Source: an uncultured bacterium
GTDB taxonomy: Bacteria; Hydrothermota; UBA3072
Length of the DNA stretch: 64,000 bases
Reading direction: 5' to 3'
NCBI GenBank assembly: GCA_964556365.1
Contig: CAZKVT010000008.1
Span: 4,826 to 68,825 of the forward strand
This document shows, piece after piece, positions 13,642-61,549 of the stretch (its first letter is position 1; every line of letters starts with the position of its first letter). The notes beneath the pieces are model-generated. The model was not told the DNA's origin and ran no database searches. It saw nothing but the letters and a program-made list of their open reading frames with translations. The position numbers were made by a program, and so were the translations under genes.

Positions 13642-15636
13642 TCAACGATACATTATAACAGTTTTTCTTGTCGCTATAAATTCATTTCCATTTGCCTGTA
13701 TTCTAACAAAATAAACCCCTTTTGGACTACCTTTCATATCAAATTCCTTCGAATAAAATCCAGCAGGCTTTTCTTCCGAAACGTCTTTGATTTTTTTACC
13801 GCTTATATCATATACAAACAGCTTTAAGGAAGCGTTTCTTGGAAGAGCATAATTAATTGTAAGTTTACTGCTCGGTATTACACCTTTAACATTAATAGCA
13901 TAACTCTTCGGTAATCCAATATTACCAATTGAAGAGACTGAAATCGAATCGATAGAAACAATAGAAAAAACTCCATCGCTTAAGTCCGACAGACTTCCGT
14001 CTAAATCCGCAATCCTCACCATGCAATTTTCCGAAGAAATACCGGCAGGAGTAAACCAATCAAAAGAACCATCATCTGCCGCGCTATCTGTAATAGTTAC
14101 CCAATTCGGCACCGAATCGCCTCCCGTCGAATCATAATATGCATCCAGCGTATATTCTATTTTGACCGTTCCGGATGTACCATAAGAATTCCATTCAACA
14201 TAATTAACGGTATCTGCATACCACGTCTCTCCGCCATTTGGTGAAGTTACTGTAATATATGGCTGTTCAGGAGTGCTATCAGCAGGAATAATGGAGAATA
14301 TATCATCACTTACATCCGATGGACTTCCGTCAACATCAATAATCCTCACCATGCAATTCTCCGAAGAAATACCGGCATGAGTAAACCACTCAAAGGAACC
14401 ATTATCTGCCGCGCTATCCGAAATCGTTACCCAATTCGTTACTGAATCGCCACCTGCTGAATCATAATACGCATTTGTTGTATATTCTATTTTTAATATT
14501 CCCGATGTGTTATAAGAATCCCATTCTATATAATTAGCGGTATCTGCATACCACGTCTCTCCGCCATTTGGTGAAGTTACTGTAATATATGGCACAAAAA
14601 CCGTATCGTGAGGAACAATGGAAAAAATATCACTTGCATCTTCCGGGCTTCCATCAACATCCGCAATCCTTACCATGCAATAATCCGAGGAAATATCCGG
14701 AGGGGTTAACCAGGCAAAATTTCCAGTATCTGACGCACTATCTGCAATTGTTATCCAATTAATCGAATCACCGATAGAATCGTATATATTGGGACTATAT
14801 TCTATTTTTACGGCCCCCGAAGTTCCGGAAGAACTCCAGATGATATAATTAACGGTATCCGCATACCATGTACCTCCACCACTCGGGGATGTTATTCTCA
14901 TATAAGGCTCCGGAACTGTATCACGAGGTACAATAGAGAAAACTCCATCGCTAACATCCGTCGGGTTTCCATCAACATCCGCAATCCTTACCATGCAATA
15001 ATGCGAGGAAATATCCGGAGGGGTCATCCATGCAAAAGAACCATTATCTACCACGCTATCCGTAATCGTTACCCAATTCGGCACCGAATCACCTCCGGTA
15101 GAATCATAATACGCATTTGTCGTGTATTCTATTTTAACCATTCCGGATATGTTATAAGAATCCCATTCGATATAATTAACAGTATCCGCATAATACGTTT
15201 CTCCACCATTTGGCGTCACTATATTAATATAAGAAGAATCCGGCGAAGACGAATCGGATACAATAGAAAACACTCTATCACTTACATCAGAAGCCCACCC
15301 ATATAAGGCAGACACCCTCACCAAACAATAATCCGAAGGCGTATCCGGAATTTTCCAGGAATAAGAACCATCATTCCTTGTTCGCTTGGTTAAAGATTCC
15401 CATGTAGAATCGTTATCGGTCGAATATTCTATTTTCACATATTTTATCCAACCTATAGACTTCCAGGTAATATTGTAGGTAGAATCAACACACCAAGCTT
15501 CTCCACCATTCGGGGACGCCACCTTAATTCTTGGGAATCGACTCCAATACAAGCTTTGAGAACCAGAAGATTCAATATCCTGACCCAATACAGCAAAAGA
15601 GAAAAAAAACAACAACAATACAAACTTTTTACTCAT
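13642..15636 (-). CDS. secreted repeat protein with T9SS-type C-terminal sorting domain
   Basis: 664 aa; signal peptide MSKKFVLLLFFFSFAVLG. Five tandem repeats (I.(I/V)(T/A)(T/S)P(N/S)GGE(T/A)(W/Y)...(Y/N)C(M/L)VR(I/V)..(D/G)...DVSD..FSI(V/I)). Last ~90 aa end in GVYFVRIQANGNEFIATRKTVIMYR. GGAGG RBS. Confidence 0.75.
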   Translation of the reverse strand: MSKKFVLLLFFFSFAVLGQDIESSGSQSLYWSRFPRIKVASPNGGEAWCVDSTYNITWKSIGWIKYVKIEYSTDNDSTWESLTKRTRNDGSYSWKIPDTPSDYCLVRVSALYGWASDVSDRVFSIVSDSSSPDSSYINIVTPNGGETYYADTVNYIEWDSYNISGMVKIEYTTNAYYDSTGGDSVPNWVTITDSVVDNGSFAWMTPPDISSHYCMVRIADVDGNPTDVSDGVFSIVPRDTVPEPYMRITSPSGGGTWYADTVNYIIWSSSGTSGAVKIEYSPNIYDSIGDSINWITIADSASDTGNFAWLTPPDISSDYCMVRIADVDGSPEDASDIFSIVPHDTVFVPYITVTSPNGGETWYADTANYIEWDSYNTSGILKIEYTTNAYYDSAGGDSVTNWVTISDSAADNGSFEWFTHAGISSENCMVRIIDVDGSPSDVSDDIFSIIPADSTPEQPYITVTSPNGGETWYADTVNYVEWNSYGTSGTVKIEYTLDAYYDSTGGDSVPNWVTITDSAADDGSFDWFTPAGISSENCMVRIADLDGSLSDLSDGVFSIVSIDSISVSSIGNIGLPKSYAINVKGVIPSSKLTINYALPRNASLKLFVYDISGKKIKDVSEEKPAGFYSKEFDMKGSPKGVYFVRIQANGNEFIATRKTVIMYR
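13957..15530 (-). repeat. five tandem coding repeats of ~100-110 aa (DNA period ~330 nt for the last two)
   Basis: e.g. CCGCCATTTGGTGAAGTTACTGTAATATATGGC recurs at ~14233 and ~14563; protein repeats 4 and 5 are near-identical. Confidence 0.85.
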
Positions 15637-39048: not shown

Positions 39049-39074
39049 GGTGTATTTTACCACGTTCAACGAAA

Positions 39075-39153
39075 CGGTTAGGTCGTTAGGTGGTTGGGTC
39101 GTTAGGTGGTTTAAAAAATCCGAACCAACGGCCCCACGATCCAACGAACCAAC
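39075..39153. repeat. cargo-less inverted pair of GTTAGG / CCAACG 8-mer arrays
   Basis: CGGTTAGGTCGTTAGGTGGTTGGGTCGTTAGGTGGT - TTAAAAA - ATCCGAACCAACGGCCCCACGATCCAACGAACCAACT; same unit family as the flanks of the four-helix-bundle gene. Confidence 0.75.
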
Positions 39154-39162
39154 TCTTAAAAA

Positions 39163-43663: not shown

Positions 43664-43812
43664 AAAAACCCCTCTTCGGGGGTTTTCTAAAGTCTATTCT
43701 CTTCTCTCATCCGGACTTTAACCGTCGGCTTCGGAATTTCACCGAATCAGGATTGCTCCTCGCGGGCTTTCACCGCCGGTCGGGAATTACACCCAACCCC
43801 GAAAAGATATTT
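43664..43812 (-). promoter_or_regulatory. FMN riboswitch (RFN element) with terminator hairpin abutting the ribD start codon
   Basis: Minus strand: ...CGGGGTTGGGTGTAATTCCCGACCGGCGGTGAAAGCCCGCGAGG...GATTCGGTGAAATTCCGAAGCCGACGGTTAAAGTCCGGATGAGAGAAG, then AAAACCCCCGAAGAGGGGTTTTTTTT-ATG. Confidence 0.85.
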
Positions 43813-51399: not shown

Positions 51400-51500
51400 A
51401 GAATTCAGAAGACAGGAGTCAGAATTCAGAATCCTCATACCACCCAATCTTTTATAAGATCGTTAGATAGTTTCAAAAATTCCGAACCAACGAACCAACT
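51400..51500. repeat. 8-mer arrays including a second cargo-less GTTAG/CCAACG pair
   Basis: AATTCAGA AGACAGGA GTCAGAAT TCAGAATC; then AGATCGTTAGATAGTTT - CAAAAAT - TCCGAACCAACGAACCAACT. Confidence 0.7.
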
Positions 51501-57277: not shown

Positions 57278-59155
57278 GTGTCTTCAAATATTTTAAAAGA
57301 AAGGTTAGAAAAAGAACAGTATGATAAACTGATACGGATTGACAATCCCGAACTGCATGAATTTGTCGCGAAATATATTGAACATTGTAATCCTGAAAAA
57401 GTATTCGTTTGTACCGATTCAAAAGAAGATATCAAATACATAAGAGAAGCCGCCATCAGGAATGGGGAAGAAATCGAACTCGCAAAAGAAAATCACACAA
57501 TTCATTTCGATAATTATTACGACCAGGCAAGAGATAAGAAAAACACAAAAATATTACTTTCCGAAGGAGTAGAACTCGATAAAACAATAAACACTGCCCC
57601 CAGAGAACAATCCCTTGAAGAAGTTCACGGAATAATGAAAGACATAATGAAGGGGAAAGAAGTATATATTAGATTTTTCAGTCTGGGACCCACAAACTCT
57701 GAATTCTCACAACCTACAATGCAAATGACAGATTCAGCCTATGTCGCTCACAGCGAAGACTTGCTTTACAGACAGGGATTCGAAGAATTCGTACGTCAGG
57801 GAAGAAACGCCCGCGCCTTTAAAATAGTCCACTCTGCGGGTGAACTCGATGTTCGAAATACAAGCAAAAATTTGGATAAACGCAGAGTGTATATAGACCT
57901 CGAAGAAAATACGGTTTACAGCGCGAACACTCAATACGGTGGAAACACAATCGGACTAAAAAAACTATCGATGCGTCTCGCGATTAACCGCGGAATAAAA
58001 GAAGGATGGCTAACAGAACATATGCTGGTCATGGGTGTTCATGGCCCTAATGATAGAGTTACGTATCTTACGGGCGCGTTTCCTTCTCTCTGCGGAAAAA
58101 CTTCTACCGCGATGCTGGATAATGAATCTGTTATCGGCGATGATATTGCTTATCTTAGAAAGAAAGATGGTAAAGTACGAGCGGTCAACGTCGAAAGCGG
58201 GGTATTTGGAATTATCATGGGAGTAAACTCCCTTGACGACCCCATAATCTGGGATGCTCTACATTCTAACGCGGAAATAATATTTTCCAATATTCTAATG
58301 ACACCCGAAGGTGGAGTTCACTGGATAGACAAAGACGGAGAAATACCCGAAAAAGGGATAAATCATTCGGGAGAATGGCATAAAGGCAAAAAAGATAAAG
58401 AAGGAAAAGAAATAACCCCCTCTCACCGAAATGCGAGATTTACTATCTCTCTGGAAAACTTCGACCACCGCGACCCAAAACTTCACGACCCAAAAGGAGT
58501 CGAAATAGGTGGTATAGTTTACGGCGGAAGAGACTCCGACACCTGGGTTCCAATCAAAGAATCTCTAGACTGGGCGCATGGAATAATAGCTTACGGTGCA
58601 TCGCTCGAATCGGAAACCACTGCCGCAACGTTAGGACAAGAGGGAGTAAGAAAATTCAACGTCATGTCTAACATGGATTTCCTTTCTGTTTCAATAAGAG
58701 ATTATATAAACGCGAACCTTGATTTCGCGAAAGGGTTAGAAAAAGAACCCAGTATATTCGCGGTCAATTATTTCCTTGTAGATAAAGACGGTAATTTCCT
58801 TAACTCGAGAGAAGACAAAAAAGTCTGGTATAAATGGGCAGAACTCCGGGCAAATAGAGACGTGGACGCGATAAACGCTCCAACCGGTCGCATTCCCAAA
58901 TACGAAGACCTGAAAAGACTCTTTAAAGAAGTTATAAATAAAGAGTTTACCGAAGAAGATTATAACGAACAATTCAAAATAAGAGTAAAAGAAAATATCG
59001 CGAAAATCGACCGAATCGAGGAAATTTACAGGACACAGATAATGGATGCTCCGAAAGTCGTTTTCGATGTTCTGGAAGAACAGAGAAAAAGACTCCTTTC
59101 AGCGCAAGCGAAGCATGGAGACTACATTCTTCCAGGAAACCTGGAAGAATGTTAG
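57278..59155 (+). CDS. pckG: phosphoenolpyruvate carboxykinase (GTP)
   Basis: 625 aa; GTG start after AAGGAGGG; FPSLCGKTSTAML kinase-1a motif, NARFT, GGRDSD. Confidence 0.95.
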   Translation: MSSNILKERLEKEQYDKLIRIDNPELHEFVAKYIEHCNPEKVFVCTDSKEDIKYIREAAIRNGEEIELAKENHTIHFDNYYDQARDKKNTKILLSEGVELDKTINTAPREQSLEEVHGIMKDIMKGKEVYIRFFSLGPTNSEFSQPTMQMTDSAYVAHSEDLLYRQGFEEFVRQGRNARAFKIVHSAGELDVRNTSKNLDKRRVYIDLEENTVYSANTQYGGNTIGLKKLSMRLAINRGIKEGWLTEHMLVMGVHGPNDRVTYLTGAFPSLCGKTSTAMLDNESVIGDDIAYLRKKDGKVRAVNVESGVFGIIMGVNSLDDPIIWDALHSNAEIIFSNILMTPEGGVHWIDKDGEIPEKGINHSGEWHKGKKDKEGKEITPSHRNARFTISLENFDHRDPKLHDPKGVEIGGIVYGGRDSDTWVPIKESLDWAHGIIAYGASLESETTAATLGQEGVRKFNVMSNMDFLSVSIRDYINANLDFAKGLEKEPSIFAVNYFLVDKDGNFLNSREDKKVWYKWAELRANRDVDAINAPTGRIPKYEDLKRLFKEVINKEFTEEDYNEQFKIRVKENIAKIDRIEEIYRTQIMDAPKVVFDVLEEQRKRLLSAQAKHGDYILPGNLEEC

Positions 59156-59184
59156 ATCGTTAGGCCGTTAGGTAGTTAGGTCGA
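59151..59184. repeat. left 8-mer array flanking the four-helix-bundle gene
   Basis: GTTAGATC GTTAGGCC GTTAGGTA GTTAGGTC GA, beginning inside the pckG stop codon. Confidence 0.8.
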
Positions 59185-59211
59185 TAAAAACTATAAAATT
59201 TTGGAGCATTA

Positions 59212-59589
59212 ATGGAAGGACACAAGACAAAAACACATCGAGATTTGGAAATCTGGCAGAGAGGAATAGATTTAGTCACTAAGATCTATAAAATAACAAA
59301 AAACTTCCCAAAAGAGGAACTTTACGGTTTAACATCTCAAATGAGAAGAGCGGCTATTTCTTATCCCAGTAATATTTCAGAAGGAGCTGCCCGTGATTCA
59401 ATAAACGATTATATTCGTTTCCTATACATATCTATGGGATCACTCTCCGAACTTGAAACACAAATAATTATTTCCGAAAAGTTAGGATACCTCAAAGATT
59501 CAAAAGATATACTTGAAGATATCGAAGCGATCACTCGAAAAACTTATAATCTGATAAAATATCTCAAATCAAAAAAAGATTCATCTTAA
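59212..59589 (+). CDS. four-helix-bundle protein (23S rRNA intervening-sequence protein family, TIGR02436-like)
   Basis: 125 aa; DLEIWQRGIDLV..IYKITKNFPKEELYGLTSQMRRAAISYPSNISEGAAR...FLYISMGSLSELETQ matches the family pattern as I recall it; GGAG RBS. Confidence 0.8.
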   Translation: MEGHKTKTHRDLEIWQRGIDLVTKIYKITKNFPKEELYGLTSQMRRAAISYPSNISEGAARDSINDYIRFLYISMGSLSELETQIIISEKLGYLKDSKDILEDIEAITRKTYNLIKYLKSKKDSS

Positions 59590-59692
59590 CGAACCAACGA
59601 CCTAACGATCCAACGAACCAACCAATATAGACCTAGGACTTATTACCCAATATTCCGATCCAACGAACCAACGACCTAACGATCCAACGATT
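59588..59692. repeat. right 8-mer arrays (inverted relative to the left array), containing a perfect 29-nt direct repeat
   Basis: AACGAACCAACGACCTAACGATCCAACGA at 59588-59616 and again at 59662-59690; units CCAACGAA CCAACGAC CTAACGAT. Confidence 0.85.
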
Positions 59693-59698
59693 ACAATC

Positions 59699-59726
59699 TT
59701 GACAAACTTGCAATTTCTTATATCTT
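59699..59726 (+). promoter_or_regulatory. sigma-70-type promoter of the tRNA-Glu/tRNA-Gln pair
   Basis: TTGACA 59699-59704, 16 nt, TATCTT 59721-59726; tRNA-Glu starts at 59736. Confidence 0.5.
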
Positions 59727-59735
59727 TTATGCGCT

Positions 59736-59810
59736 GGCCCCATCGTCTAGCCCGGCCTAGGATGCATGGTTCTCAGCCATGTGACAGGGGTTCAAATCCC
59801 CTTGGGGCTA
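59736..59810 (+). tRNA. tRNA-Glu (anticodon CTC)
   Basis: Hand-folded 75 nt: GGCCCCA/TGGGGCT acceptor (G1-U72), CATGG-TTCTCAG-CCATG anticodon arm, AGGGGTTCAAATCCCCT T-arm; no encoded CCA. Confidence 0.85.
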
Positions 59811-59828
59811 TACCATATATATAATTAC

Positions 59829-59902
59829 TGGGGTGTCGTCTAATGGCAAGGCACAGGACTCTGGATCCTGCTATCGGGGTTCGAATCCCTGCACCCCAGC
59901 CA
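59829..59902 (+). tRNA. tRNA-Gln (anticodon CTG), CCA encoded
   Basis: Hand-folded 74 nt: TGGGGTG/CACCCCA acceptor, CAGGA-CTCTGGA-TCCTG anticodon arm, GGGGTTCGAATCCCT T-arm, GCCA 3' end. Confidence 0.92.
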
Positions 59903-61549
59903 TTCTTTACGATTTTTCGAACACCAATTACCACCTGCGCTCCACCGCCCACCCAACCCATGCTCGTCCGCCTCGCCCGATGGCGCTCGGCGACCTCGCT
60001 TTGAGGTCGACCGCCCTTCCGCGGAATCTTCGCCAACTACGTCGGCTCGCCCCGCGGAATAGGCTCGGTGATTTCCGAGTCCTCGAATGTATCCCTCAGG
60101 CAAATAGAAAATGTCCAACGAAACTTCGTCAAGTCCATAAGATATGGACTTGATAAGACTTTGAAAAAGCTGGGGTCTGTCTTTGGGGGAAATTTCGCCA
60201 ATCTTTTTTGAAAAATCTTTTAAGTTTTCTAAAACAATTTTTGTTTCAAACTTTTCTTTTTCTTCTTTTTGAATTGAAAGTTTTATCCCCTCTAAATCAA
60301 ATTCCAAAACCTTTTTCTTGTTTTCGAGATTTTCGATTTCCTTCCTAACGGAAGGAAATCTCTCAATCCCCACTTCCGAGAGAATATCGATAAGATTTTG
60401 GAGTTTACTCCCCACCACCCTTAATTCATCGATTTTCTCTTTTTCTTGTTTTTTGAGGGGGCTTATTTTTAGTTCGTCGTTTTTGTTTGTTCTCTCGACT
60501 ATTTTGTTTATTGCTTTTTCGTCTTTGCTTATTTCCTTTAATTTGTATATGACAAAATCTTCGATTTTGTCCGCATTCACCGATTTAATATTACAGCTAT
60601 CCCACTCATGCTTATAAGTTTTTGTGCAGCGGTAATATTTTGTATATCTCGGAGTAATTCCGTCCTTATGTTTATTTTTTGTATAGGTCGGCGTCATGGT
60701 CGAACCGCATTCACTGCACTTAAGAAGACCCTGCAAAAAATAAACGTGGTCTATTTTCGTTTTTCTCTTATACCTTTTCTTGTGGAAGCTTTGAGCTTTT
60801 AAAAACATCGGCTCTGTTATTATCGGTTTATGGACTCCATCGTAAAGATTTTCTTTATACGGAAGTTTACCGTAATAAACAGGATTTCTTAAAATATTAT
60901 CTACGGTCGTTTTACTGAATTTCTTGCCTTTCCTTGTTTTATATTTTTTATTTATTCGTCTTCTTGTCTCCGCAAGCGACTTAGTTTCAATAAATATTTT
61001 AAACATTTCTTTTACAAATTCTGATTCTTCCGGGTTTATAACAAGTTTTTTATCTTTGTTCTTATATCCGTACGGAACAGTTCCTCCGTTCCACATTCCT
61101 TTCTCCGCTCTCTGATACATTTTATCTTTTGTTCTCTCCGCTGAGAGTTCCCGTTCAAACTGAGCGAAAGTTAGCATAATATTTCTTAAGAGTCTTCCCG
61201 AAGGAGTTGCAGTATCAAAGTGTTCTGTTATGGAAATAAAAGAAACTCCGTTACTGTCGAAAAGTTCAATCAAAGCGTAAAAATCTTTAGGCGACCTTGT
61301 CAGCCTATCGATTTTATAACAGAGTACACAATCGATTTTTCCGTCGATAATATCTTTAAGCATTCTGCCGAGTGCGGGTCTTTCGATATTCGCGCCGGAA
61401 TATCCGGGGTCACTATAAACCTGATAAAGTTTAAGCTCTTCCTGACTTTTAATGTAGGATTTTATCCGTTCTTCCTGGGCTTCGCAGGAGTTATATTCCT
61501 TTTCCGCTTGATTATCTGTTGATACTCGAGTGTATATCGCACATTTCAT
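59840..61549 (-). CDS. large serine recombinase (recognisable domains end near 60092; ORF tail reads through the GC-rich segment and antisense tRNA-Gln)
   Basis: 569 aa; catalytic CAIYTRVSTDNQ, resolvase domain, recombinase domain, zinc ribbon CSECGSTMTP...YYRC, long coiled coil; AGGAAGGAAG RBS. Confidence 0.9.
   Translation of the reverse strand: MKCAIYTRVSTDNQAEKEYNSCEAQEERIKSYIKSQEELKLYQVYSDPGYSGANIERPALGRMLKDIIDGKIDCVLCYKIDRLTRSPKDFYALIELFDSNGVSFISITEHFDTATPSGRLLRNIMLTFAQFERELSAERTKDKMYQRAEKGMWNGGTVPYGYKNKDKKLVINPEESEFVKEMFKIFIETKSLAETRRRINKKYKTRKGKKFSKTTVDNILRNPVYYGKLPYKENLYDGVHKPIITEPMFLKAQSFHKKRYKRKTKIDHVYFLQGLLKCSECGSTMTPTYTKNKHKDGITPRYTKYYRCTKTYKHEWDSCNIKSVNADKIEDFVIYKLKEISKDEKAINKIVERTNKNDELKISPLKKQEKEKIDELRVVGSKLQNLIDILSEVGIERFPSVRKEIENLENKKKVLEFDLEGIKLSIQKEEKEKFETKIVLENLKDFSKKIGEISPKDRPQLFQSLIKSISYGLDEVSLDIFYLPEGYIRGLGNHRAYSAGRADVVGEDSAEGRSTSKRGRRAPSGEADEHGLGGRWSAGGNWCSKNRKEWLGCRDSNPDSRIQSPVPCH
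59903..60092. other. GC-rich, C-skewed, hairpin-rich segment of unknown nature
   Basis: Hand count of 59931-60070: 98/140 G+C (C 62, G 36 on + strand) against AT-rich surroundings. Hairpins at 59989-60012 and 60064-60079; palindrome TTCCGCGGAA 60017-60026. Confidence 0.5.

Follow-up and report, generated by a model that had tools for sequence, protein, structure and literature searches.

An apparently exchangeable, array-armed four-helix-bundle gene between pckG and tRNA-Glu in an uncultured Hydrothermota bacterium

Why should a small gene for a four-helix-bundle (4HB) protein lie between inverted arrays of short repeats, in the layout of a 23S rRNA intervening sequence (IVS), at a place outside rRNA? 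The question is raised by a stretch of 64,000 nucleotides, referred to here as the window, from an uncultured bacterium (GTDB lineage Bacteria; Hydrothermota; UBA3072; assembly GCA_964556365.1, contig CAZKVT010000008.1, positions 4,826 to 68,825 of the forward strand), in which a gene for a 125-aa protein, designated 4HBa, follows pckG and precedes tRNA-Glu. An earlier note on this DNA had likened the locus to the IVS cassettes that RNase III excises from 23S rRNA, and had offered two origins for it, insertion of the gene into a pre-existing repeat hairpin or a mobile, processed cassette. To our knowledge, the PF05635/TIGR02436 family of such proteins is very large and has solved structures, with a function known only for Avd, the accessory protein of diversity-generating retroelements (DGRs), and the short four-unit arrays of 7-8-nt units found in many bacteria are unexplained.

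Our best explanation, to which we give slightly better than even odds (about 0.55), is that 4HBa and its arms form an exchangeable, hairpin-armed PF05635 cassette of IVS-like architecture outside rRNA, the arrays being functional cis elements that are possibly bound by the 4HB protein.

The armed 4HBa gene and its paralogs

The gene had been placed between two right arrays and a left array beginning within the stop codon of pckG, and this is exact to the base. In order, the module comprises a four-unit GTTAGNNN array, a ribosome-binding site (RBS) with the open reading frame (ORF), and a four-unit NNNCYAAC array, all on the plus strand. The left arm (59151-59183) consists of the octamers GTTAGATC GTTAGGCC GTTAGGTA GTTAGGTC plus G; the stop codon of pckG, TAG at 59153-59155, falls within its first unit, and the last two to three codons of pckG lie in or adjoin that unit. 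An A-rich spacer of 28 nt (59184-59211), which is the counterpart of the 5' half of the hairpin loop in the gene-less copies described below and evolves fast, with insertions and deletions, carries the RBS GGAG (59203-59206). 4HBa itself (59212-59589) is followed directly 3' of its TAA stop by right arm 1 (59590-59622; C GAACCAAC GACCTAAC GATCCAAC GAACCAAC) and, after a spacer of 34 nt, by a promoter-proximal right array 2 (59657-59689; GATCCAAC GAACCAAC GACCTAAC GATCCAAC G). The perfect direct repeat common to both right arrays (59588-59616 = 59662-59690) has a maximal length of exactly the 29 nt that had been reported for it, and the pairing proposed for GATCGTTAGGCCGTT of the left arm and AACGACCTAACGATC of the right also stands, with 14 of 15 positions complementary. 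Matches to the array pattern number nine in the window versus 0.28 expected, which is beyond chance.

4HBa was assigned to the PF05635/TIGR02436 (S23p) four-helix-bundle family from its profile matches: PF05635 at E = 1.2e-35 and 122.4 bits (cut-off 33.8), covering positions 1-103 of 106; TIGR02436 at 124.6 bits (cut-off 24); and NF008911 at 141.2 bits (cut-off 137). Comparison by phmmer with PDB 2GSC (XCC0516 of Xanthomonas; five chains) gave E = 1.1e-28 over residues 7-115, and a family member of this type is a four-helix bundle in a homopentameric toroid (PMC4990558, citing Lin 2006). Ten proteins from public assemblies are 88-99% identical to 4HBa, and every readable contig places the gene directly after pckG. 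Values of dN/dS (nonsynonymous over synonymous change) for six distinct orthologs were 0.05-0.20, with dS up to about 1.2, which indicates that 4HBa is under strong purifying selection and that the cassette, once installed, is vertically inherited. Mean pairwise distances among the six were 0.023 at second and 0.255 at third codon positions, 0.319 (with indels) in the spacer from arm to start codon, 0.163 in the right arm and 0.048 in the left arm. By this measure the left array is conserved at the level of coding sequence, about five times above synonymous sites; the right array keeps its CYAAC core and its period, and its variable bases drift without compensation in the left arm. Because the scan found neither promoter-like nor terminator-like sites between pckG and 4HBa (0 terminator-like sites in 58900-59950) and the gene has its own RBS, 4HBa is probably co-transcribed with pckG.

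The arrangement is not confined to this locus. The source is a metagenome-assembled genome (MAG; 78% complete, 1.85 Mb, 47 contigs, 36.5% GC) whose ORFs were crudely called. It has seven PF05635 matches, and all five intact genes as well as the fragments are flanked by inverted short-period arrays, the units of which differ from paralog to paralog: GGATTTG/CAAATCC, AGAATYC/GRATTCT, GTGAATGN, GTTAGRAG/CTYCTAAC and, for 4HBa, GTTAGGNC/GAWCCAAC. An ORF was scored as armed if inverted, related 7/8-mer arrays, called by Tandem Repeats Finder (TRF), lay within 90 nt of both of its ends. Seven of 1656 ORFs in the genome were armed by this definition, three of them 4HB genes (Fisher p = 5e-7); on visual inspection the two remaining intact 4HB genes are armed as well, with arrays below the TRF threshold. 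This test replaced one based on strict ungapped Watson-Crick complementarity of the flanks, which missed degenerate arms and ranked 4HBa 6th of 1636.

Of 24 4HB genes from relatives, nearly all are likewise armed. Those at least 58% identical to 4HBa all have octamer arms: at 66% identity or above (our own contig C4, G002, G007, G013, G003 and P0015) the units have a GTTAG core, and a pair at 58% (our own C7 and G012) has related GTGAATGN-type units. More distant 4HB genes have units such as CGGTTAT, GGTCAAGG, CGTAAAT, GGATTTA, CGGCTTT and TAGGTNT, among others. Arm type follows protein clade across genomes; therefore the arms and the gene travel together, as a unit. The earlier note had named two findings that would speak against it, namely other copies of the family without inverted arrays and relatives without presence/absence differences at array sites. 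Mapping of TIGR02436-like genes against the arrays, which it had suggested, gave all intact paralogs and nearly all relatives' genes as armed, and relatives do differ in presence and absence (see below), so neither finding was made.

A tandem series of GTTAGRAG-armed 4HB units was observed at C4:98786-106116, with an intact gene at C4:98992-99366 and three 4HB fragments or remnants at about 100946, 103207 and 105800. On the coding strand, a short ORF start, MSKIEKFEDI..., stands ahead of each of these units and resembles the N-terminus of another 4HB gene severed by the array, and the same arrangement of GTTAGRAG-armed units is present in metagenome contig L079.

The main rival to a functional unit is passive association, in which the arrays are generic intergenic repeats, similar to repetitive extragenic palindromes (REP) or bacterial interspersed mosaic elements (BIME), or else regulator sites, with the gene and its arms functionally unlinked. 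We regard this as unlikely. It draws on the abundance of period-7/8 arrays, of which the 1.85-Mb genome has more than 400 in all kinds of intergenic regions, and on the empty hairpins found in genomes that have no 4HBa ortholog. It leaves unexplained why inverted arrays bracket 5 of 5 intact 4HB genes as against 4 of about 1650 others, why the arm unit follows the protein clade across loci as well as genomes, why the arms begin exactly at the neighbor's stop codon and at the 4HB stop codon, and why conservation of the left arm exceeds that of neutral sites fivefold; moreover, the same gene-in-stem design occurs in 23S rRNA IVSs (PMC4990558).

Replacement at the pckG spacer

In the sister species G013, the corresponding site holds an empty hairpin (GTTAGATC GTTAGGCG GTTAGGTC GTTAGGTG GTTTAAAAATCC CGATCCAAC GAACCAAC) just upstream of the second array and the promoter. 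The left arm of this hairpin and that of our genome differ at 3 of 33 bases, the array and promoter that follow are shared, and the G013 contig that carries it has no 4HB gene. Alignment with the empty hairpin therefore places 4HBa exactly in a hairpin loop, with junctions at G-ATAAAAA on the left and at ATTCC-GATCCAAC on the right in the 96% orthologs. Comparison of orthologous pckG-tRNA spacers, another of the checks that had been suggested, in this way revealed the presence/absence difference, with an almost identical left arm at the vacant site.

Other relatives have other cassettes. In G006 and metagenome contig L102, a gene whose product is 37% identical (4HBb) occupies the site between heptamer arms CAGGTAC/GACCTAG, and in L105 octamer arms TAGTGAAT/ACTAATTC flank a third gene (4HBc), whose copy on this contig is frameshifted. 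The sequence GACCTAGGACTTATTACCCAATATTCC at 59630-59656, within the spacer that separates the two right arrays of our genome, is homologous to the functional 4HBb right arm GAGACCTAGGACCTGGTATCTGATATTCC of G006 and L102, and is a right arm left over from an older, different 4HB cassette; it also occurs in G013, L074, L062, L094 and L095. L102 retains a remnant of a 4HBc-type array beside its promoter, and L094 and L095 keep two distal right-arm units and the heptamer remnant next to a reverse-oriented toxin-antitoxin-like insert. Older right arms are thus stacked in the direction of the tRNA promoter, and the current cassette abuts pckG.

L094 (1795-2906) and L095 (1427-2299), the closest pckG relatives without the cassette, also contain several other array types in this region along with the reverse-oriented pair of small genes. 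One protein of the pair has 73 aa and two CxxC motifs (zinc-ribbon-like), and its resemblance to YgiT/MqsA-type antitoxins was judged from sequence alone.

To compare the state of the site with descent, a tree was built from the last 200 residues of pckG in genomes and metagenome contigs. In this tree L074, which has 4HBa, is sister to L102, which has 4HBb, with near-zero branches (97/94); L062 (4HBa), G006 (4HBb) and L105 (4HBc) form one clade (100/100); and our own genome is sister to L094, which has no cassette (99/97). The state of the site thus disagrees with the pckG tree. The exchanged segment extends from about eight codons before the pckG stop, a limit set by C-terminal tails that are specific to cassette type, to a conserved CTTGACA. 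At the tRNA promoter, CTTGACAA is invariant across seven congeners, and the variable spacer ends on the right at this conserved promoter. Taken together, these comparisons mark the spacer as a hot spot of mutual replacement, its occupants having included at least three unrelated armed 4HB cassettes, an empty hairpin and non-4HB inserts. On the two origins proposed earlier, insertion into a pre-existing hairpin or a mobile cassette, the data say that a single hot spot has seen replacement more than once.

The 4HBa orthologs also differ in structure, in ways consistent with rearrangement mediated by the arrays. Right array 2 is present in G013, and L065, which carries a 99% ortholog, has one right array and not two; the repeats have therefore undergone deletion or duplication, which fits the 29-nt repeats. 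In L074 both arrays have private variants in common, and were therefore homogenized. Two independent insertions of insertion sequences (IS; DDE_Tnp_1 and IS3/rve) lie within the right arm a few bases after the 4HB stop, in two metagenomic lineages of orthologs (L067-L072 and L073). Many contigs also break at this point.

Passive association has a second form that concerns this site in particular: small acquired genes would gather at a recombination-prone spot near the tRNA-Gln integration site and be swapped through conserved flanks. The non-4HB content at the pckG site (the toxin-antitoxin-like module and another ORF) and the strain-to-strain variation of the tRNA-Gln islands agree with it, as does the swapping of arrays without any gene at another site (39077, see below). 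We conclude that passive accumulation explains the turnover, and does not explain the specificity or the conservation of the arm.

The flanks of the hot spot are as follows. To the left lies pckG (57278-59155, plus strand), which encodes a GTP-dependent phosphoenolpyruvate (PEP) carboxykinase (PF00821, 1.6e-104; PF17297, 8.5e-63). To the right, on the same strand, lie a predicted sigma-70-like promoter (TTGACA-16-TATCTT, 59699-59726) and the pair of genes that it serves, tRNA-Glu(CTC) at 59735-59811 and tRNA-Gln(CTG) at 59829-59902 (59735-59902 together). The final NNNCYAAC unit stands at a fixed distance from the -35 box of tRNA-Glu (CYAACG ATTRCAAT CTTGACA, window 59689-59704), and this distance is kept in four species, including G003, G014 and G013, though the upstream units differ; the promoter-proximal array may influence the promoter. 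Just after tRNA-Gln, about 150 nt (59903-60060) are GC-rich (about 65%) in an otherwise 36% GC genome, and a serine recombinase ORF on the minus strand (59840-61549) has a C-terminal tail that reads through this stretch and overlaps the tRNA-Gln gene. The variable island downstream of tRNA-Gln contains the recombinase, DUF3800 and others. Elsewhere in the window, a tandem repeat at 13957-15213 (period 330 nt, 3.9 copies, 74% matches, TRF score 1221) is probably repetitive coding sequence.

Empty hairpins, predicted stem formation and rival mechanisms

Chains of GTTRG units spaced exactly 8 nt apart comprise 2, 3, 4 and 5 units in 53, 13, 34 and 1 cases, respectively, a four-unit mode with a sharp stop that is unlike slippage-driven repeats. 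About 14 compact gene-less hairpins (~80 nt) with a conserved, A-rich apical loop were found in the genome, with the consensus GTTAGGNC GTTAGGNG GTTAGRTC GTTAGGTG GTTTAAAAAATCC GAACCAAC GACCCCAC GATCCAAC GAACCAAC. Two copies without cargo had been pointed out in the window, both of which were recovered on the plus strand: a full copy of 77 nt at 39077-39153, in which four units, the loop GTTTAAAAAATCC and four units follow one another, and a truncated copy at 51460-51499 (TCGTTAGATAGTTT-CAAAAATTCC-GAACCAACGAACCAAC). The 4HBa arms belong to this dispersed family. Its members have no U-run and occur in intergenic regions of all three kinds (tandem, convergent and divergent); therefore they are not simply terminators. 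Nor do the 4HBa arms have the GC-rich stem and U-run of an intrinsic terminator or REP-type 3' stabilizer. The GTTGG...CTAAC strand folds better in 11 of 13 GTTAGG-type copies, because mismatches turn into G.U pairs. A scan of the window against Rfam returned the tRNAs and a flavin mononucleotide (FMN) riboswitch and no family for the hairpins; the riboswitch (RF00050, 117 bits) lies on the minus strand at 43695-43810.

Hairpins of this type were counted in congeners, giving about 12 in G007, 10 each in G013 and G011, and 0-2 in eight others. All six genomes with at least five hairpins have a 4HB gene from the 4HBa clade (58% identity to 4HBa or more), versus two of the nine others (p = 0.007, kinship among genomes being ignored), a weak hint of a relation in trans between the hairpins and these genes. 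At the site of the 39077-39153 hairpin (compared window 39050-39160), G007 has unrelated heptamer arrays, GACTCAT... and CCGGTAT..., of almost the same length (L083 = G007:C60, 1858-1965), between flanks 93-98% identical to ours; array elements are therefore replaced as blocks. G014 has a mere 34 nt in this gap, and among relatives (gaps of 34-353 nt) there is no gene-filled version of the hairpin.

The arms can in principle close a stem. When RNA of 59140-59700 (561 nt) was folded, the left arm paired with the right arrays on both strands, in the minimum-free-energy (MFE) structure as well as the centroid; the z-scores of the whole folds were modest (-1.65 and -2.03). The duplex of left arm and right arm 1 was calculated at -32 kcal/mol in the sense and -38 in the antisense strand, and for intact orthologs at -30 to -38 and -37 to -44 kcal/mol, respectively, collapsing only where an IS interrupts it. 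Note that RNAduplex, when applied to the 110-nt flanks of 28 cassettes, gave overlong duplexes and a noisy measure, and the weak trend toward a GT-rich 5' arm (17 of 28) was not used. Terminal inverted repeats thus do close a stem around an S23p ORF, imperfect in comparison with the 28-bp stem of Coxiella. Folding, also advised in the earlier note, accordingly bears it out as to the pairing itself, and goes against it in that the arms are loosely complementary and changes in the right arm are uncompensated.

Could the cassette then act as an IVS does in RNA? In such a scheme the arms would form a stem in the pckG-4HB co-transcript and a double-strand-specific RNase would free the 4HB cistron. 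The topology, with short tandem repeats and a terminal stem whose loop holds an ORF, is identical to that of the IVSs of Coxiella and Leptospira (PMC4990558), the absence of a terminator or promoter between pckG and 4HBa fits, and the duplex is kept in all intact orthologs. Nevertheless we consider the scheme quite improbable. The stem is imperfect, its wobble pairs favor the antisense strand and not the mRNA, there are no compensatory changes, the whole-fold z-score is just -1.65, and the empty hairpin of G013 has divergent promoters on either side, a position where mRNA is not expected. In addition, searches with PF14622 and TIGR02191 found no RNase III gene in our genome or in 14 congeners (7 genomes at least 90% complete), and all bacterial control genomes were positive. 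RNase III excision as in rRNA IVSs is thus unlikely in this genus, because none of its 15 genomes has an RNase III gene by these searches. What stands of the proposed likeness to an IVS is the topology and the predicted pairing of the arms; excision by RNase III is unlikely to be part of it.

A further rival holds that the arrays are REP-like elements mobilized in trans by a host enzyme, such as a Y1 transposase similar to the REP-associated tyrosine transposase (RAYT), with the 4HB gene as trapped cargo; among the rivals we rate it lowest. The genome does have one Y1_Tnp gene of this kind (C4:46211-47077, 288 aa, PF01797 at 36.7 bits), which is bracketed by identical 41-nt palindromes (CTAACTTTACACTTTTGTCCCGGACAAAAGTGTAAAGTTAG; C4:46174-47161 with flanks) that begin with CTAAC and end with GTTAG, the core motif of the octamers, and members of the hairpin family are scattered over the genome and vary from species to species. 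The palindrome is nevertheless a different sequence with only four copies (further ones at C1:134530 and C13:41897), and on this ground the RAYT was rejected as the mobilizer of the cassette. The rival would also leave unexplained why all 4HB genes have arms even though the arm units are of many unrelated kinds, and why selection on the 4HB protein is strong.

Under our preferred explanation, an exchangeable armed cassette, the module would fill the A-rich apical loop of a hairpin that is gene-less in the sister species G013. The arrays would act in cis and have a fixed size of four units or about 32 nt, and an oligomer would recognize them as tandem units, the pentameric 4HB protein itself being the most economical candidate. 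Being inverted, they would let single-stranded DNA or RNA close an imperfect stem of ~30 bp around the cistron in vivo. Gain and loss may proceed by recombination or template switching at the arrays together with ordinary homologous exchange through conserved flanks; the cassette itself encodes no enzyme for this.

Several points weigh against this explanation. No direct repeat in the manner of a target-site duplication flanks the arms when filled and empty sites are compared, and no movement of a cassette was seen directly. No copy of 4HBa above 76% identity was found away from the pckG site among 5.8 billion proteins; matches of 74-76% belong to the C4-type paralog, with GTTAGAGT arms and another context, and a recent donor elsewhere was accordingly rejected. 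The cassette holds no ORF besides 4HBa, and encodes no transposase or recombinase. The conflict with the pckG tree, which was drawn from 200 aa and metagenome contigs, could stem from ordinary homologous recombination beside the tRNA-Gln island hot spot. The right arm is far less conserved than the left (0.163), and with an almost invariant left arm and uncompensated changes in the right there is no support for selection on arm pairing; the sense strand, which pairs better in only 11 of 28 cassettes, is not favored over the antisense. Empty hairpins occur in 10-12 copies in G013 and G011, which have no intact 4HBa ortholog (for G013 the closest 4HB gene is of the C4 type and 68% identical; for G011 there is just a fragment, 80% identical), and many array families have no matching 4HB gene in this genome, a MAG that is 78% complete. 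Finally, recognition of the arrays by a 4HB oligomer is wholly something that we infer.

The locus ties the PF05635 family to unexplained short arrays, and a single site shows three cassettes, an empty hairpin or none of these within one genus. It offers a natural series of filled, empty and replaced states for studying how cassettes are gained and lost. With no RNase III found in the genus, it also separates the cassette design from IVS excision, the only mechanism shown for that design.

Comparison with known systems

A broader reading may be put forward as a tentative suggestion, namely that PF05635 pentamers are sequence-specific readers of four-unit 7/8-mer arrays, each paralog forming with its cognate arrays a system like REPIN/RAYT without a nuclease of its own. 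If so, armed cassettes, gene-less hairpins and the four-unit arrays of Xanthomonas, Geobacter and cyanobacteria would be faces of one system, and 23S rRNA IVSs would be those copies that had come to rest in helices of rRNA. To spread, a cassette would enter a hairpin loop at a transcribed junction by template switching or by recombination guided by the arrays, and such spread would explain the layered arm remnants at the hot spot.

The one family member of known function offers little guidance here. Avd of DGRs is a homologous four-helix-bundle pentamer, basic and nucleic-acid-binding, which acts on a repeat-bearing RNA/DNA template. 4HBa scores just 22.3 bits on NF033474 (bAvd, PF22296/NF033474) versus a cut-off of 80, and there is no reverse-transcriptase ORF beside it (its neighbors are pckG, the tRNAs and the serine recombinase; template and variable repeats were not searched for); it was on these grounds not classed as a DGR Avd. 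Nor was the cassette classed as a miniature inverted-repeat transposable element (MITE) or an IS, since it has no target-site duplication and no encoded transposase.

For the mode of recognition, analogies may be found among ring-shaped RNA binders. The HutP hexamer reads UAG-N4 repeats, and the TRAP 11-mer reads GAG/UAG repeats. The likeness is one of mechanism only, with one site per protomer and evenly spaced motifs: there is a UAG in the GTTAG core, and the units come in a fixed number with a period of 7-8 nt. The folds are unrelated to that of 4HB proteins, and binding of arrays by PF05635 proteins is putative.

REPIN-RAYT systems, or REPtrons, reportedly consist of REP hairpin doublets and a RAYT, as Nunvar in 2010, Bertels and Rainey in 2011 and Ton-Hoang in 2012 are said to have described. 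They share with the 4HB cassettes a single, vertically inherited gene between inverted copies of a repeat that also occurs without the gene as dispersed hairpin doublets, and different paralogs pair with different repeat families. As in a REPtron, the 4HBa arms match a family of about 14 empty hairpins. An example is internal to the genome, where the RAYT and its palindromes have the same layout as the 4HB cassettes, which carry no nuclease. The 4HB proteins differ in that they have no HUH/Y1 nuclease fold or motif, so that no chemistry of cleavage or transposition can be proposed for them, and in that their repeats are tandem 7/8-mers of fixed number and not a single palindrome.

The arrays themselves have counterparts. 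In Xanthomonas, GGGAATC heptamers form paired inverted arrays, preferably of four units (Rehm et al. 2015, PMC4692102), and Geobacter metallireducens has four tandem octanucleotides GTTGCTYN in opposite-strand pairs, as well as heptanucleotides (Aklujkar et al. 2009, PMC2700814). Common to these and to ours are intergenic location, units of 7-8 nt, the four-unit preference, convergent pairs at variable distance and polymorphism between species. The papers propose G-quadruplexes or binding sites for a global regulator and name no gene family (PMC4692102, PMC2700814), whereas ours flank PF05635 genes and, not being G-tracts, are not expected to form quadruplexes.

The closest counterpart is the 23S rRNA IVS. 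In Coxiella burnetii, Leptospira and Brucella, a long terminal stem encloses an S23p (PF05635) ORF in its loop (Warrier et al. 2016, PMC4990558); in Coxiella, GACAGAT heptamers whose copy number varies between strains stand by the start codon and the stem is near-perfect over 28 bp (PMC4990558). RNase III releases such S23p-bearing IVSs from pre-23S rRNA (PMC4990558). In the literature searched, a PF05635 stem with heptamers is described only for rRNA IVSs, and no paper links a PF05635 gene-in-stem with paired short arrays. The 4HBa cassette differs in several ways. It lies between a protein gene and a tRNA promoter, in the pckG/tRNA-Glu spacer of a window without rRNA, and not in helix 45, 25 or 9 of 23S rRNA; its arms are four-unit octamer arrays, loosely complementary; its gene is intact and under strong purifying selection, whereas the Coxiella ORF is decaying and apparently untranslated; and the host genus appears to lack RNase III. 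It is like the rRNA IVSs in its S23p family, in its placement in a stem-loop, in its tandem short repeats, in its size (430-540 nt) and in having been proposed to be mobile, now or formerly.

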